Below, piece by piece: positions 23,471 to 63,786 of a stretch of DNA of 64,000 nt (positions are counted from its first letter, which is position 1; every line of letters starts with the position of its first letter). A program made the position numbers and the translations under genes. This DNA is from a virus (Duplodnaviria > Heunggongvirae > Uroviricota > Caudoviricetes). The notes beneath the pieces were generated by a model that saw only the letters and a program-made list of their open reading frames with translations, made no database searches and was not told where the DNA came from. Location: IMG/VR virus record IMGVR_UViG_3300046779_000230, positions 23,562 through 87,561 of that record; one strand, given 5' to 3'.

Positions 23471-23679
23471 AGCGAGCGTGAAGGATAGCCAACAGCAAAG
23501 CCACTGGTGCCAATTTGGAAACTGCGAGAGGCTTTAGAACTCATTTTCTGAGTGGTGCGACGACGAGACTTTTTGGCTTTGACCACTTCAATCTGACCAC
23601 CACGAGCAAGGAATTGCTGTACAGCTTCAGATGTTTCTTCACGAACTTGTGATTTGGTTTTGTAGATAGTTGCTTGCAT
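23467..23679 (-). CDS. hypothetical small basic protein
   Basis: I moved the start to the ATG at 23679, which follows the strong RBS AAAGAGGA. The product contains FLARGGQIEVVKAKKSRRR. Confidence 0.45.
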   Translation of the reverse strand: MQATIYKTKSQVREETSEAVQQFLARGGQIEVVKAKKSRRRTTQKMSSKASRSFQIGTSGFAVGYPSRSL

Positions 23680-58100: not shown

Positions 58101-58116
58101 TTATTTATTATTTATC
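58101..58116 (-). promoter_or_regulatory. late promoter motif GATAAATAATAAATAA
   Basis: This 16-mer is identical to the one at 48073-48088. It lies 24 nt upstream of the gp13 ATG and overlaps the stop of 58112-59149. Confidence 0.55.
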
Positions 58117-59149
58117 CAGTAAAAATGTTCTGATAGTCGTCTAGTAAGAACAACCACTCAGGCTCATGGATAGAAAATGTTGAAATCTTTTTTGGTTTAT
58201 TTCTAGCATAGTGTTCCATACCTCGATCCGCTAGAAAGTCTCTCATCTGCCATCTGTGTGTAGAAGAGTCGCCTTTAACTTTTGTAAATGGTTCGTTGGT
58301 GCTAATAGCCCACTGCTGAAATTCAATAGAATCAAAAAACCCATGAATCATTTTAGCTTTTTCTGGACTAAGAAGAATCTTGTGTTCGTATATCGCTGTA
58401 TACCAGTCTAGGTTAAAAATGCAATACCATCTAAGGTCTGCAATAGTTTCTATTTTTCTTGGTGAAGTTTGAATAATTGGGTTTAAAAATTCAAGCAAGT
58501 CTTCATTAACATTACCGATATAAGACTCATATATCGTTTCTTTGTTACCTAGTGTATGATGAAACATAGCCTTATCACCAGTAGCAAACATATCATCAGT
58601 TGGTCCAAACAATTGATTGCCACACATACCACTAACAAAGATAGAATCATCAGTATTGTGAAAGCTAAAGTTATTTCTGGCTCCAACTCTAATATCAAAT
58701 AAGAAATCGTTCTTTATCTTAGAGTCAAAAAGATCGCCAGATTCTATGATAGAATTATATGTACCGAACACTCTTACTTGATCTTTATCTACAGCAAACT
58801 CTTTTAAAATGTAAAGAATATATGTACTGTCGATGCCACCAGACCACATAACATTAATTTTCTTACCAGTAGATAGAAGTTCTTTAGCTCGACGCTCTGC
58901 AACTTCATGAAAGCTAGTGTTATAGTTTTCTACTCGTTTTGGGATTGGATGAAGGTTTGGAGTTATATCGAGAAAGTGTTTCAGGTTTCCAGTCCTATCA
59001 TAAACAGCATTATGCTTGTTTAGACCGAACCACTCATAACTCTCGAATACATCTCTTGTATTGGCTAAGAATGGTGTTGACTCTATTGTTTCTCGACTTC
59101 CAGTTAGAAGTTCTGATATTAGTTGTGGGTTATAATATAAAATAGACAT
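58112..59149 (-). CDS. PP-loop ATP pyrophosphatase (asparagine-synthetase-domain-like adenylating enzyme)
   Basis: INVMWSGGIDSTYILY carries the SGGxDS PP-loop. At 345 aa it has no glutaminase domain. Confidence 0.7.
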   Translation of the reverse strand: MSILYYNPQLISELLTGSRETIESTPFLANTRDVFESYEWFGLNKHNAVYDRTGNLKHFLDITPNLHPIPKRVENYNTSFHEVAERRAKELLSTGKKINVMWSGGIDSTYILYILKEFAVDKDQVRVFGTYNSIIESGDLFDSKIKNDFLFDIRVGARNNFSFHNTDDSIFVSGMCGNQLFGPTDDMFATGDKAMFHHTLGNKETIYESYIGNVNEDLLEFLNPIIQTSPRKIETIADLRWYCIFNLDWYTAIYEHKILLSPEKAKMIHGFFDSIEFQQWAISTNEPFTKVKGDSSTHRWQMRDFLADRGMEHYARNKPKKISTFSIHEPEWLFLLDDYQNIFTG

Positions 59150-59168: not shown

Positions 59169-59184
59169 GGGAGCCGAAGCTCCC
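59169..59184 (-). terminator. UUCG-tetraloop hairpin (weak terminator candidate)
   Basis: The hairpin is GGGAGC-UUCG-GCUCCC followed by UUGAUUCC. Confidence 0.4.
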
Positions 59185-59189
59185 CTTTA

Positions 59190-60137
59190 TCATTGCAATT
59201 TAATTTTTTCTACTAATCCAGGTGAGAAGTAGTCTTGGAATTTATCATATACTGTAGAAGTGATTTCTCTAAACTTAGATTCTTCTTCTTCACTCATCTT
59301 GACAACTTGAATGTCATTTTGTTTACATTGTTCAAGAATATTTGGGATATCAGCAACAGACTCTTTACGCTCTTGACGCGCTGCGTTAAATGCAGCAGTA
59401 GTCATAATCTTCTGAGTCTTTTTATCAAATTGCTTAAAGAAGTCTTGATTAACAATAATAGAAGTTAAGAACAAGCTATGTGATGTTTCGTTAACTATCT
59501 TGAAAGACTTATATTGATCTAATGGGAAAACACGAACGTATGTAGACTCACCTGCAGCAATCTCGCCTTTGTCTGCATACTGGTTCATTTCTTCCAAAGT
59601 GATATCTTCGCGTGGAATAGAACCAAGAGCCTTAAATGTTTCAACGGCAACTGGAGAACGAGAAGTTCTAACCACTTTACCTTTCCATGCATCTACAGTG
59701 TTTGCAGCAAATGTAGATGGAACAATACGGTAACCACCAGAGTATGTAAATGACATAGCTTTAATGTTGGAATTCTTAGAAACCCCAGCCAATAGTTCTG
59801 TGCCAATTTCACCTTCTAGAACACGGTCAGCGTGTTCATGATCTTTGAACAAAAACGGCAGATCAAATGCATGTAGATCTTTGTTGTAGTCACCAAGCCA
59901 AGTAGTGTAGATGTGAGACATCTCAATCTTACCTGTATTGATTAAATCCATAAGATCGTATTTTGTTACTTTCTTACCATCGTTATATTTTTCAGCATAG
60001 TCAGAAAGAGACAAAACTTCGATGTCAAACGCACCGTCCGTTTTCTCGTTAACTTCTTTTGCAAATCGTTCAGCTACCTTCAAAAACAAGCCGATTGGCT
60101 CGTGGGCGATAACCCATTTGACATGTTTAGTAGTCAT
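59190..60137 (-). CDS. TRAP-type (DctP-family) solute-binding protein homolog without a signal peptide
   Basis: Three blocks match the DctP pattern: FDLPFLFKDHEHADRVLEGEIG, GKVVRTSRSP..ETFKALGS and GEIAAGES. The N-terminus MTTKHVKWVIAHEP lacks a hydrophobic leader. Confidence 0.7.
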   Translation of the reverse strand: MTTKHVKWVIAHEPIGLFLKVAERFAKEVNEKTDGAFDIEVLSLSDYAEKYNDGKKVTKYDLMDLINTGKIEMSHIYTTWLGDYNKDLHAFDLPFLFKDHEHADRVLEGEIGTELLAGVSKNSNIKAMSFTYSGGYRIVPSTFAANTVDAWKGKVVRTSRSPVAVETFKALGSIPREDITLEEMNQYADKGEIAAGESTYVRVFPLDQYKSFKIVNETSHSLFLTSIIVNQDFFKQFDKKTQKIMTTAAFNAARQERKESVADIPNILEQCKQNDIQVVKMSEEEESKFREITSTVYDKFQDYFSPGLVEKIKLQ

Positions 60138-60436
60138 TTTAGTTCCTCTAAAACTTTGGTTTCAAAAAACCATTTTTCTGTTTGTGATTTTAAATCTATT
60201 TGCCTTCTTAAGAAGGGAGTTCTATTATTTATAAGAATCCTAATAATACTCTCTTCTGGAATTTCTTCTTTATTTAGGATCTGGGATGTCGGTATAACCG
60301 TATCTCTGTAACCATATTCCTTCGCAGAAGAGTCGTAAAAAAAGTAGTCCTTGACCGTGAATCCCTCACATCCACTTAGCGGAGATCTAGGGTACTGATT
60401 TATCTCGAATAGAAATTCATTAATATATGGTGTCAT
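60134..60436 (-). CDS. hypothetical protein translationally coupled to the rSAM gene and the SBP-like gene
   Basis: The 100-aa ORF has 4-nt overlaps at both ends. Confidence 0.45.
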   Translation of the reverse strand: MTPYINEFLFEINQYPRSPLSGCEGFTVKDYFFYDSSAKEYGYRDTVIPTSQILNKEEIPEESIIRILINNRTPFLRRQIDLKSQTEKWFFETKVLEELK

Positions 60437-61806
60437 ACTGATACGATCGGAATTACTTTTTTCTTGGTTTCGACTTTTCCATTAATCATCCAGAAAATGT
60501 CTTTTCTGTCTTGTCTTAGTGGTCCATCGATATAAACTGGAATGTGTCCTGTTAAAATTTCAATAGCTGCACAAAAAATGACAATGTTGTCGCTAAATGA
60601 GTTATCGCATGTGGCTTCCCATAATGGACCAGTTAAAAAGAAACAAGCACCTTTACAGATGTGTAACACAGGGCACTTAGAACATTCTTCTCGATCACTC
60701 CAATGCGTTCCTGTTTTTATCTCAATATTTTTAAGATCTTTAACATTACCCAAGTGGTGTGAAATTCCAGATGGATTATGCGAAACTGTAGATACATTCT
60801 GGCAAGTTAAGACATTACCCTTTAAGTCTATAGCAATATTTTCAGACTTGTCCATACCACATTTCTGAGATAAGGTTTCTTTTCTAACTCCAGTTTCCAG
60901 AGACTTAATAAAGTTACTTATTTTTGTTTGTATTGTGCTGTATCGAGTAACACTGTCTGCGCGAAGTTCGTCGAATGTAAATTTTCTATAGTTAATATGA
61001 GATTCATCATTCATTAAAGAGTTAGCAGTACCACCCTCGTCGTATGCGTCAATAAAAGTGCCTTCGCCGATTGATAGGTACTTTACATATTCTTCACCAA
61101 GTTCTTTTCTGATTAACTCTTCGAAAAATAATTGAATGTTTTTACGGCTAATATTTTTGTTAGTTATCATAGAATTGAAACTAACACGACCTAGAGGAGC
61201 TAAAGTTTTATATGCGTAGATGATACCTTCTCTACTGGATGGGTCATCTAGTGGGTCTGGACCGCGAATAAATTGACCAACCGCATCATGAGAAATACCA
61301 ACAGTAAACCTTAAGTTGTTTAACCAATCAACCTTTTCTTTGTCTAGTAGACTACCATTAGTGATAATAGAAAATTCTGAGTTTGGATACTTAGCGCGAA
61401 TTTCTTCAGCAAGAGGTTTCAAGGTCTTCCAATATACTAGAGGTTCACCACCCCAAAATTCAAAGTATCTATTCGAACCCTTACCGTCTTCTCCACCATC
61501 AAACCATGATGGTATTTGTTCTACAAATTCTTGAATATCATTTGGGTTTGTAGAATCTGCGTGTGGCACAAATCTCTGATTGCAGTAATCACACTCGAAA
61601 TTACAAGAAAGACCAAGCTGTATCTTAACAGTTTTTGGTGCCTTGCCAATTTCTAGTTTTTTCTGAGATTGTGGGAGATTGTTTATTCTAGTTTCGATGA
61701 CAGCGGTGCCATCTTCCCATGTTAGGGTGCTAAACGTAGAATTATAGATCAATTTTTTAGTTAGACCGTCTTTTGGGTTAACTGATGTTATTACAAATTG
61801 TGACAT
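60433..61806 (-). CDS. radical SAM enzyme with a C-terminal SPASM domain (peptide/protein maturase type)
   Basis: GLSCNFECDYCNQ carries CxxxCxxC. The SPASM pattern is CGMDKSENIAIDLKGNVLTC (C-x13-G-x4-C), then CSKCPVLHICKGAC (CX2CX5CX3C), plus a downstream Cys. Confidence 0.85.
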   Translation of the reverse strand: MSQFVITSVNPKDGLTKKLIYNSTFSTLTWEDGTAVIETRINNLPQSQKKLEIGKAPKTVKIQLGLSCNFECDYCNQRFVPHADSTNPNDIQEFVEQIPSWFDGGEDGKGSNRYFEFWGGEPLVYWKTLKPLAEEIRAKYPNSEFSIITNGSLLDKEKVDWLNNLRFTVGISHDAVGQFIRGPDPLDDPSSREGIIYAYKTLAPLGRVSFNSMITNKNISRKNIQLFFEELIRKELGEEYVKYLSIGEGTFIDAYDEGGTANSLMNDESHINYRKFTFDELRADSVTRYSTIQTKISNFIKSLETGVRKETLSQKCGMDKSENIAIDLKGNVLTCQNVSTVSHNPSGISHHLGNVKDLKNIEIKTGTHWSDREECSKCPVLHICKGACFFLTGPLWEATCDNSFSDNIVIFCAAIEILTGHIPVYIDGPLRQDRKDIFWMINGKVETKKKVIPIVSV

Positions 61807-61824
61807 TATATACCTTAAATGAAA

Positions 61825-61845
61825 TTCTGGGGACTAGCCCCAGAA
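61825..61845 (-). terminator. hairpin between the late motif and the rSAM start (terminator or 5'-leader structure)
   Basis: The hairpin is UUCUGGGG-CUAGU-CCCCAGAA followed by UUUCAUUU. Confidence 0.5.
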
Positions 61846-61846
61846 G

Positions 61847-61854
61847 TATTTATC
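61847..61854 (-). promoter_or_regulatory. late promoter motif GATAAATA upstream of the rSAM operon
   Basis: The motif lies 40 nt upstream of the ATG at 61806 and overlaps the stop of 61853-62632. Confidence 0.45.
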
Positions 61855-62632
61855 AAGAAATTGTTATGGTAAAATCAGCTATACCTGTGTATTTTCTATG
61901 ACCAGCCTTAACTCTCACTAAGTCTCCAACATCCATACCAGTAGTTAAAAGTTTAAACGAACCAGAACCATTGGTTAATGGCACTCTAAGTTTATTTGGA
62001 ATTCCATAAACTTGCTCTAAATAAACTTCCTTGACAGTAGGGCTAGAAGAAACATCAATAGTAATACTAGAGTCTACTCCGACAGAAGACTGTGTAGAAG
62101 ATAATGTCACTGGAGCTATTAGATCTCTAGTGAAACGAACTGTTTCGCTTGTGACATGTTGAGCAGATGGACCTTCTACGATATAATCTACATCATCGCT
62201 ATCTTTGATAACATATGTAAAGTCCGTGAAATCTCCCTCAGAATCTTCAACGAAAATTCCAAACGGTGTGTAGAAAAAACCAGATTCCTGAGAATACCCT
62301 TGTTTCTTAGAGACTAGTGTTTCTGCCAATAAATCTATGACCATTGGCGCGCAAACTGGATGGTGTGTATTATTCCCATCAGAATCTAATAATGGATAAC
62401 AACTTTCTACAATAGTCCACACAGACTGATCACAGAAACCTTTTGATGCCTTTAATGTTTGTAAAGACATTTCACACCAAAATATTTCTTTGTACTCTCC
62501 ATCTTTATTCACAGAGACTTTAACTTCTAGTGTTTCAGGTTGTATATTCAAAAATATCTTGGGTGGTGTTAGGTTTTCACCCGCTTCTTTATTGAAGATT
62601 GTGTTTGGCGTTTTCGATCTAATAATTCTCAT
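61853..62632 (-). CDS. hypothetical protein, possibly virion-associated (beta-rich C-terminal domain)
   Basis: The 259-aa ORF lies between the fibre-like gene and the rSAM operon. No motif was recognised. Confidence 0.4.
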   Translation of the reverse strand: MRIIRSKTPNTIFNKEAGENLTPPKIFLNIQPETLEVKVSVNKDGEYKEIFWCEMSLQTLKASKGFCDQSVWTIVESCYPLLDSDGNNTHHPVCAPMVIDLLAETLVSKKQGYSQESGFFYTPFGIFVEDSEGDFTDFTYVIKDSDDVDYIVEGPSAQHVTSETVRFTRDLIAPVTLSSTQSSVGVDSSITIDVSSSPTVKEVYLEQVYGIPNKLRVPLTNGSGSFKLLTTGMDVGDLVRVKAGHRKYTGIADFTITIS

Positions 62633-62640
62633 AGATTACC

Positions 62641-63786
62641 TTAACAGTTGCAGTTGCAGTTACAATTATGTGCACGAAGAACCATGTTAGTTCCTTGTCT
62701 AATTGTATCATACCAAGTTGTGTCATGTCCTGGGGGATTACGTGAAGCATTACCCATACAGTTACCTACAGCTCGACCACCACCACCGTCAACGAAGAAA
62801 CCATAGTTACCTAAGTTGTTAACGAATTGAGATAGGTGACCTGGACGACCTTGTACGTTACCCCATGGAGTCACTTCAGCATAGAATGCATATCCAACGT
62901 TAGTTACGCTAACTGCTCCAGTGTTACCTTGAACAGATGTAACTGGGACTGAGACTACAACTGCGCCAGTGTTACCTTGAACAGATGTAACATGAGCAGA
63001 AACTGTTGGATTACCAGCAACACCATCTCCGTTAGAAACTGTAATACCACCACCAGCAACAATAGTTCTTGTTGCCATAGAACCAGTACCAGTTCTTGAA
63101 AGCATACCAGTTGTTGTCAAACCAGAAAGAGCAGACAAGTCAGAGTCGAATGGCTGAACGTCAGTACCGATTGTTAGACCAAGAGTGGCACGAGCAGTTA
63201 TTGCATCGCCATCGTCTAACAGAGTTCTGGCATATGGCGTCAAGCTAGTAGTATCGGCAGTGCCAAGACCTGTGTAATAAGGCAATGTATTTGCTGCAGA
63301 TGTTGTTGCAGCTAGGGCATCTAACTCTAGATTCCATGCTTGTACATCAGAACCAATGGCTAGACCCAAGTTAGTTCTAGCGCCAGCTGATGTAGATGAG
63401 CCAGTACCACCGTCTGCGATTGCCAAGTCTGTGATACCTTGGATTAAACCACTGGTAATCGCTGCTTCACCAGAATGTTTACCACTAAAATCTGCAGCTG
63501 TGATTACGTTGGCTTCAAAGTTACCTGAAGCATCACGAACTACTGCAGAGCTTTTATCAGCACCAGCTGGTAGCAATACAGATGCACTATAACCATCTAG
63601 TAAGTCGGCATCTAAGCCAGAACCGCTGCCGTCAACTGTTTTAAGTTTAGTTAAGATATCAGCTGCATTATAATCAACAGCTGTTAATTTTGTGGCTAAT
63701 TCGTTGTTCAGGTTACTAAAGTTTGCATCGACTTCAGCGTTAGTCAGCGGACTTCCTTTAGTACCTCTTAATGTAATAACTGCCAT
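62641..63786 (-). CDS. tail-fibre-like protein ending in (Asn-Cys)4
   Basis: The N-terminus [24 protein letters not shown] is a common phage-fibre N-terminal motif. SVQGNTGAV fibre repeats occur twice. The region between is Gly/Thr/Ala-rich and beta-type. The C-terminus is [11 protein letters not shown]. Confidence 0.75.
62644..62667 (-). repeat. codon-level tandem repeat encoding NCNCNCNC at the extreme C-terminus
   Basis: The minus strand reads AAT TGT AAC TGC AAC TGC AAC TGT TAA. Confidence 0.9.
62918..62991 (-). repeat. 26-bp direct repeat at a 48-nt period
   Basis: ccagtgttaccttgaacagatgtaac occurs at 62918-62943 and again at 62966-62991. It encodes [11 protein letters not shown] twice. 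Confidence 0.9.

Follow-up and report, generated by a model that had tools for sequence, protein, structure and literature searches.

The 64,000 nucleotides of viral DNA analysed here, which we call the window, are positions 23,562 to 87,561 of the IMG/VR record IMGVR_UViG_3300046779_000230 (Caudoviricetes). On its minus strand the window encodes a tail-fibre-like protein of 381 amino acids (62641..63786) that ends in His-(Asn-Cys)4 and, downstream of it, a 457-residue radical S-adenosylmethionine (SAM) enzyme with a SPASM domain (60433..61806, minus strand). We found that Asn-Cys tails and this enzyme clade occur together in 131 of 136 loci drawn from viral contigs, isolated phages and prophages. 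This gene linkage supports a direct functional link between the two, and we lean modestly towards the reading that the (Asn-Cys)n tail is the recognition or substrate motif of a phage-encoded maturase, which probably forms Cys-to-Asn thioethers.

Linkage between the tail and the enzyme

An initial annotation of the window had reported that the fibre-like protein terminates in HNCNCNCNC, and the translated open reading frame (ORF) bears this out: the tail and its stop codon occupy 62641..62670 on the minus strand (residues 373-381). The same annotation had placed the enzyme one gene away from the fibre gene, whereas it is two genes downstream, with an ORF of 259 codons (p259) at 61853..62632 between them. 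For the function of the tail it had offered a metal cluster, inter-chain disulfides or enzyme-installed Cys-Asn thioethers.

We looked at co-occurrence in both directions. In the forward direction we took loci with a radical SAM match of E<=1e-40 and at least 2.5 kb of sequence upstream, and searched within 6 kb for a same-strand (xC)>=3 run containing Asn-Cys. A scan of IMG/VR gave 41 radical SAM loci, and 80 more came from scanning bacteria, with one genome taken per species. Most of the bacterial loci are prophage-like tail regions in Limnohabitans, Polynucleobacter, Burkholderia, Paraburkholderia, Polaromonas, Rhodoferax and several alpha-proteobacteria. Three of the five loci that missed the pattern turned out to have short variants of it, NCRNCNC (L014 and L015) and NCQCGN (Ralstonia phage RSP15). 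The remaining two (L216 and L230) have radical SAM proteins with 34-38% identity in non-phage contexts, and these look like outgroup paralogues.

In the reverse direction we searched viral contigs for DNA coding NCNCNC and then TAA. This gave 112 stretches with 64 distinct C-termini of ORFs of at least 60 amino acids. Where at least 3 kb of sequence lay downstream, a radical SAM gene was present for 41 of the 46 distinct ORFs ending in NCNCNC. As a control, none of 27 occurrences of the pattern away from ORF ends had a radical SAM gene in the locus. These results strongly confirm the expectation that relatives with (NC)n-tailed fibres should also carry the radical SAM gene, and they favour the enzyme-installed option of the initial annotation over its other two.

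The linkage spans unrelated types of virus and host: T4-like myoviruses, the Achromobacter siphovirus JWF, RSP15 (recorded under Ackermannviridae) and prophages of Burkholderiales and alpha-proteobacteria, with G+C contents from 33 to 69%. JWF and RSP15 have the closest homologues of the enzyme among isolated phages (42-47% identity), and in both of them a tail-fibre gene comes first, then one or two genes for products of 240-290 amino acids, then the radical SAM gene. The RSP15 fibre ends in ...SNTNCQCGN. There are also minimal two-gene loci, in which the radical SAM gene lies within 75-200 nt downstream of a gene for a small NC-rich protein. Because these loci dispense with p259, we consider the minimal pair to be the tail and the enzyme.

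The tail, the proteins that carry it and the enzyme

The codons of the tail in the window are CAT AAT TGT AAC TGC AAC TGC AAC TGT TAA, with the stop codon at 62641-62643, the four Asn-Cys units at 62644-62667 and the His codon at 62668-62670. The protein has five cysteines in total, at 343, 375, 377, 379 and 381; those of the tail are its only clustered ones, as had been noted from the sequence at the outset. C343 is likewise preceded by Asn, and among homologues N342 is conserved in 59 of 60 and C343 in 39 of 60. This dipeptide (window 62755-62760), 31 residues upstream of the tail, may be an extra modification or pairing site.

The fibre-like protein begins with a conserved shaft; a hypervariable tip domain follows in the C-terminal part, and the NC tail at the end is invariant. 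PHROG tail-fibre and structural families match it with E-values from 1e-17 to 1e-5, over the shaft only, and tblastn with its middle part finds annotated fibre and structural proteins in cyanophages and Rhizobium phages. Of the 120 closest homologues in a collection of 5.8 billion proteins, 119 retain the tail, and the 30-60 residues that precede it differ completely among homologue subgroups. A 12-mer coding for NCNC occurs three times in the window, every time within the tail, compared with 0.32 expected from shuffles, so the tail is not a chance occurrence. The AlphaFold2 monomer model of the fibre, from an alignment of 60 sequences, was poor, with a mean per-residue confidence (pLDDT) of 62, a pTM of 0.24 and pLDDT below 50 for tail residues 376-381.

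One subgroup of fibres has a His-rich stretch abutting the tail (…HLDTNHHFDPHHHHNNCTNCNCNC), for example P0142, P0177, P0181, P0208, P0251, P0259 and L018 3773-4978, which recalls the metal-binding HxH motifs of T4-type fibre tips. We also considered whether His-Asn-Cys at the start of the tail mimics an intein-like C-terminal junction. We dropped this as a general explanation, as only 16 of 60 close homologues have His in front of the tail.

For the statistics of the motif we used 124 dereplicated tails. The runs have 3 to 9 x-Cys units, and the residue before Cys is Asn in 443 of 551 units, followed by Ala (40), Asp (33), Val (8) and Tyr (7). The first unit is Asn-Cys in 114 of the tails and the second in 117. 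In 85 tails the run is at the exact C-terminus, in 32 it ends no more than 11 residues from it, and in 7 it stands before a domain of more than 100 amino acids. Some variants break the register (NC-T-NCNCNC and NC-H-NCNCNC). There are also small Cys-rich relatives in which nearly all Cys are preceded by Asn with irregular spacing, such as GNCNNGNCTSNCNCGNIQCNNC. These variants and irregularly spaced pairs show that the conserved unit is the Asn-Cys dipeptide and not a fixed CxC spacing. Over the fibre family as a whole, 248 of 310 Cys follow Asn. A single hexamer is used throughout in only 9 of the 124 tails, and both synonymous codons of Asn and of Cys are common. Since the codons are mixed, one-hexamer tails are rare and the G+C content of the loci varies as widely as given above, selection on the tail acts at the protein level.

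The proteins that carry the tail are 68 to 1082 amino acids long, and the tail is not confined to fibres. In JWF gp028 (L001 4844-6295) the run is internal (...RQNCNCDCNCNCSC) and is directly followed by FPAGTMVLMADG, where a Pfam Hint (self-cleaving) domain begins at the last Cys of the run. Cys-Phe-Pro right after the run is found in three of the seven proteins with such a following domain, namely JWF gp028, L187 4778-6307 (Burkholderia paludis MSh1) and L171 4262-5392. To judge from this arrangement, Hint self-cleavage would expose the NC run as a new C-terminus, or else the thioester of the Hint domain could serve in a ligation. Another domain found after the run, of 100-175 amino acids, starts with SKIICAKLY or GKIICTKLY, has hydrophobic C-terminal segments and has no Pfam match (L192 3064-3753, L193 3025-3930 and, on the minus strand, L144 5168-5959). 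In L192 and L193 the NC protein is downstream of the radical SAM gene.

Several loci have tandem triplets of small paralogues (81-167 amino acids), each with an NC tail (L041 1799-2608, L100 3830-4710, L131, L147, L150 and L121); in L041, L100 and L131, for example, the paralogues are 81-98 amino acids long. Other small NC proteins include one of 74 amino acids in L038. The N-terminus of these proteins is fibre-like (…GNGxVTFGDGTxxxS…LSQFTNxLGNYG), and the triplets may be interchangeable fibre tips. L041 additionally carries two p259 paralogues. Other carriers of about 184-203 amino acids, uncharacterised and near tail genes, are found at L084 4896-5450 (minus strand), L090 2672-3226, L095 11273-11881 (minus strand) and L120. 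The L140 copy of the L090 family is a 75-amino-acid open stretch, and a 99-amino-acid neighbour in L084 ends in ...CGGCSCNC.

The enzyme matches Pfam Radical_SAM (38.1 bits against a cutoff of 29.5) and Fer4_12, and the SPASM domain TIGR04085 (34.5 bits against 27). When we aligned members that are 43-62% identical to the window enzyme, the CX3CX2C motif (C68/C72/C75) was invariant. The seven-Cys SPASM motif was also complete and invariant (C316...G-x4-C335, C375-x2-C378-x5-C384-x3-C388 and C400). The enzyme thus has both the SAM-cluster motif and the seven-Cys C-terminal motif of the radical SAM/SPASM group, together with a conserved N-terminal extension of about 55 amino acids, which is shorter than a typical RiPP recognition element (RiPP, a peptide made by the ribosome and modified after translation). 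Homology places it among the peptide- or protein-modifying SPASM enzymes. The enzyme has 2,690 protein clusters at E<=1e-20, and PHROGs places the enzyme only in the generic radical SAM group phrog_1802.

The enzyme is in none of the curated radical SAM families that we compared (PapB, anSME, QhpD, the SCIFF maturase and others), with scores of 38-66 bits against cutoffs of 340-520. PapB (NF047865) is the best NCBIfam match for three divergent members, which score 60.8, 59.9 and 65.7 bits against a cutoff of 340. For anSME (TIGR03942) the score is 59.1 bits against 349, and the enzyme has seven conserved Cys after the core compared with eight cluster-ligating ones in anSME; in the profile alignment the family is without one anSME cluster Cys. 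QhpD (TIGR03906) gives 47.3 bits against 453 and the SCIFF maturase (TIGR03974) 38 bits against 425. In the PDB, the best profile match is 8vpo, a cyclopropyl synthase by the title of PMC10878394, followed by CteB (5wgg) and anSME (4k36-39). With curated scores so far below the cutoffs and mixed PDB matches, we dropped homology as a basis for the reaction chemistry.

Two jumbo phages have related arrangements. In the Ralstonia jumbo phage RP12 (NC_041911) an unannotated 65-amino-acid ORF (L233 897-1094) ends in ...NYGSNCNCNCACTRGSL. ORF075 and three radical SAM genes follow closely downstream of it, and one of these radical SAM proteins shares 23% identity with the enzyme of the window. An NC-type ORF beside radical SAM genes indicates that the motif reaches distant jumbo-phage relatives. 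Erwinia phage phiEaH2 (NC_019929) has a 68-amino-acid protein with a Cys-rich C-terminus (…HYNCGGSCSWTCSGGCSHGAGNR, L234 3949-4155) upstream of a 295-amino-acid protein and two radical SAM genes, a RiPP-like cluster. By tblastn, paired radical SAM genes of this type are also present in SPN3US-like jumbo phages.

Genes around the pair

The fibre gene is surrounded by T4-type genes (homologues of gp13, gp14 and gp15 and a gene read as the large terminase subunit), and over this region the window shares 99% identity with L003, a contig from an uncultivated virus. On these grounds the virus is an uncultivated T4-like myovirus. The late-promoter motif TATAAATA is not enriched in the window (2 occurrences compared with 3.2 expected), and there is none upstream of the fibre gene. 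The genes that follow downstream, on the same strand, are p259, the radical SAM/SPASM gene, p100, a DctP-type homologue and a PP-loop ATPase-like gene.

The p259 product is predicted to have two all-beta domains, the C-terminal one being a conserved immunoglobulin (Ig)-like domain of the intimin/invasin type and not a winged helix. Scans of known families gave no match for p259 or p100. The position of p259 is usually the site of fibre chaperone or adhesin genes. Between p259 and the radical SAM gene there is a terminator-like hairpin at 61825..61845 (minus strand) with an 8-bp stem and the tail TTTCATTTAA, found by a consensus scan only. This predicted hairpin may attenuate transcription between the structural and enzyme genes. 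A second G+C-rich palindromic hairpin lies at 59169-59184, between the DctP and PP-loop genes; of the two, it is the one at 61825-61845 that scores as a coding-strand terminator.

The p100 gene (100 amino acids, 60134..60436, minus strand) starts with a 4-nt overlap of the radical SAM stop codon and travels with the cluster in T4-like phages. Next is the homologue of DctP-type solute-binding proteins of tripartite ATP-independent periplasmic (TRAP) transporters (59190..60137, minus strand; Pfam DctP, E 3.7e-43), which also matches TRAP solute-binding proteins in the PDB. Because the match begins at about residue 20 of the protein (profile position 13), with no signal-peptide-like N-terminal extension, there is no room for a signal peptide and the protein is presumably cytoplasmic. 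The 345-amino-acid PP-loop protein (58112..59149, minus strand) has the SGGxDS motif of ATP-pyrophosphatases and only weak, motif-level matches to LarE, QueC-like proteins and PAPS reductase at E-values of about 1e-2 to 1e-5, and a PDB sequence search with it gave no match. It is a candidate accessory tailoring enzyme.

We clustered the neighbouring genes across 133 non-redundant radical SAM loci. Homologues of p259 are in 108 of them, and 2-oxoglutarate (2OG)-Fe(II)-oxygenase-like proteins are in 65, often in two copies. The p259 homologues of JWF and RSP15 are gp029 and ORF047. The oxygenase-like genes match PF13759 or PF13640 near or below the cutoff (L229 5223-5966 and 6135-6881; L041 4160-4807, 4755-5432 and 5429-5998; L180 6391-7008). 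PP-loop, p100 and DctP genes are present in 22, 20 and 20 loci, and the PP-loop linkage includes a Polynucleobacter prophage (L194). The oxygenase set and the PP-loop/DctP/p100 set never co-occur in these loci. They may be alternative tailoring routes, or the division may simply follow lineage. In L035 the p100-DctP-PP-loop block is on the other side of the radical SAM gene, between it and p259, which indicates that the three genes move as one linked group. Since at least 33 of the loci (26 + 7) have the tail and the radical SAM gene, with or without p259, and none of the accessory enzymes, these are not needed for the core reaction.

Readings of the tail and known systems

How the tail would serve as a substrate, including the thioether chemistry, the topology of the links and the role of p259, we infer as follows. 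The fibre would be made in the reducing cytoplasm, and the enzyme would then act on its exposed C-terminal tail. A thiolate of the tail would probably bind the auxiliary Fe-S cluster. In CteB-type thioether synthases an incompletely ligated auxiliary cluster binds the substrate Cys, and the seven Cys after the core of the window enzyme are consistent with a cluster site left open for the thiolate of a substrate, an analogy that is suggestive only. The 5'-deoxyadenosyl radical would take a hydrogen from a neighbouring residue, most plausibly from the beta- or alpha-carbon of Asn, and a C-S thioether would form. The reaction would repeat along the tail, within one chain or between the chains of a fibre trimer, leaving a compact knot at the fibre's distal end, insensitive to redox state and proteases. 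In this scheme p259 would either serve as an adaptor, presenting the tail to the enzyme, or dock as a partner on the tail once it has been modified. Further tailoring could come from the PP-loop ATPase, the DctP-like protein and p100 in T4-like phages and from the 2OG-Fe(II)-oxygenase-like proteins in other lineages.

We favour thioether chemistry because Asn and Cys are both conserved, because the substitutions at the Asn site (Ala, Asp, Gln) resemble the acceptors tolerated by the thioether-forming enzyme NxxcB, because the nearest curated family (PapB) forms thioethers, though the match is far below cutoff, and because the motif is at an accessible C-terminus, like RiPP cores. Several points weigh on the other side. 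PapB-type enzymes recognise carboxylates (PMC12373016), and Asn has none. Sequence similarity does not assign the reaction of the enzyme, given that its best PDB match is a cyclopropyl synthase, with CteB and anSME after it. p259 is nearly as tightly linked to the enzyme as the tail is, and could itself be the target. Finally, three families ending in NCNCNC (L084; L090/L140; L095/L120) have no radical SAM gene in a flank of 3-11 kb; in these the tail may function without the enzyme, or the enzyme may lie elsewhere in the genome.

Such tails without a nearby radical SAM gene would also suit a metal site, in which the tail cysteines of a trimer hold metal ions on the fibre axis, or a cluster of the Fe-S or metallothionein-like type, and the radical SAM enzyme either is unrelated to the tail or helps to build or insert the cluster. 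CxC motifs are typical of metallothioneins, and HxH motifs bind iron in T4 gp37. Alternating x-C-x-C after the predicted beta-hairpin, in what is a low-confidence model, would put all of the Cys on one face, and many homologues are His-rich just upstream of the tail. However, the window protein has a single His (H373) near its tail, Asn is as strongly conserved as Cys, and the NC-x-NCNC variants and irregular Asn-Cys dipeptides do not fit a fixed ladder. A metal site would also leave the near-obligate linkage to one radical SAM clade unexplained, and we regard it as unlikely. The same linkage, in 131 of 136 loci, speaks against a disulfide staple, in which the tail cysteines oxidise spontaneously after lysis and lock the trimer between chains, with p259, a small molecule or something else as the target of the enzyme. 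Cys-rich termini could do this without an enzyme, as the three families without a radical SAM gene might, and disulfide networks in phage virions are documented, as the title of PMC10811340 on phage Milano shows. Still, a staple of this kind leaves unexplained the Asn in front of about 80% of all Cys, and also the fact that the NC protein and the radical SAM gene are the only genes shared by the minimal loci, and it seems to us quite improbable.

Radical chemistry of another type could also act on the tail, either an anSME-like conversion of Cys to formylglycine or a new Asn-Cys heterocycle or modification made with PP-loop or 2OG-oxygenase partners. For this it can be said that anSME matches about as well as the thioether synthases do, that the conserved unit is an adjacent Asn-Cys pair, and that the accessory enzymes are tightly linked (PP-loop in 22 of 133 loci and 2OG-oxygenase-like in 65 of 133) and never found together. 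The sulfatase motif is C/S-x-P/A-x-R, and the tail has no such motif. The missing anSME cluster Cys and the at least 33 tail-and-enzyme loci that lack accessory enzymes also count against it, and we consider chemistry of this type doubtful. A last alternative is that the tail has no function and arose by slippage of a hexanucleotide repeat. In its favour, both middle units of the tail in the window read AACTGC, and copy number varies from 3 to 9 among relatives. Against this, one-hexamer tails are rare and synonymous Asn and Cys codons are used freely, the motif persists from 33 to 69% G+C, and the tail is kept in 119 of 120 homologues next to a hypervariable tip. The codon evidence and this retention exclude a slippage artefact for practical purposes, and we give it next to no weight.

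Taking the maturase reading more broadly, we would put at about even the chance that phages of many lineages use a radical SAM/SPASM enzyme, an Ig-domain partner and optional tailoring enzymes to modify Asn-Cys tails at the tips of their fibres post-translationally. This would be a RiPP-like pathway whose product is in the virion and whose substrate motif, and possibly cross-link type, are undescribed. The literature that we searched does not describe the module, its enzyme clade or the tail motif, and the papers on relatives of JWF are silent on them; NCBIfam and Pfam have no model for the enzyme clade, p259 or the tail-bearing proteins. A radical SAM/SPASM maturase that acts on a Cys-bearing C-terminal motif is a kind of system already known. 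What is new is the class of substrate (virion fibre and fibre-like proteins), the (Asn-Cys)n motif and the three-gene core with p259.

Radical SAM/SPASM maturases have so far been known for small secreted peptides and one enzyme subunit (QhpC). If our reading is true, it would add a new kind of maturation of the virus particle, alongside capsid chainmail and disulfide networks, and a new substrate motif for radical SAM chemistry. The module is widespread: freshwater T4-like phages carry it, as do prophages of Limnohabitans, Polynucleobacter, Burkholderia and alpha-proteobacteria. Since it sits on the end of the fibre that recognises the host, adsorption, particle stability and host range may all depend on it to some degree. 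Achromobacter phage JWF and Ralstonia phage RSP15 are cultivable phages with the module. A small C-terminal staple that is genetically encoded and installed by an enzyme could also serve protein engineering.

Among known systems, NxxcB and its peptide NxxcA resemble the proposed pair in that a radical SAM enzyme joins a Cys sulfur to an Asn carbon. NxxcB forms a Cys-to-Asn beta-thioether and accepts Ala, Gln and Asp as acceptors (PMC9389541), so the precedent cited by the initial annotation, of SPASM enzymes that join Cys sulfur to Asx-type carbons, is real. The Asn-site substitutions in our tails (Ala, Asp, Gln) are like these acceptors. N-C-N-C also formally contains the N-x-x-C spacing, and variants such as NCRNCNC keep only part of it. 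NxxcA, however, is a short secreted peptide of a streptococcal shp/rgg quorum-sensing operon, whereas the substrate here would be a virion fibre or small fibre-like protein in phages of Gram-negative hosts. The conserved unit here is an adjacent Asn-Cys dipeptide, repeated 3-9 times at the C-terminus.

PapB and CteB are likewise radical SAM/SPASM enzymes; each forms several thioethers from the Cys of a C-terminal core. Their substrates are small peptides, and at 60-66 bits against a cutoff of 340 the window enzyme clade is not a member of PapB. PapB requires a carboxylate, whether of Asp, of Glu or of the C-terminus itself (PMC12373016), whereas the tail here has Asn. As (Asn-Cys)n runs, with Asp at 33 of 551 x positions, the tails do not have the Cys-X3-Asp/Glu pattern of PapB substrates.

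QhpD is a radical SAM/SPASM enzyme that installs Cys-to-Asp/Glu thioethers in QhpC, a protein that is retained in a functional complex and not set free as a peptide. Its family matches the window enzyme weakly (47 bits), but it is a separate family (cutoff 453 bits), its acceptors are acidic, and its target is an enzyme subunit in a bacterial periplasm pathway, not a virus particle. T4 gp37, with its HxH iron sites, and phage Milano are similar in having alternating ligand residues in a tip strand and a virion stabilised by side-chain chemistry. Those systems need no dedicated enzyme, whereas here a radical SAM gene is genetically coupled to the motif.

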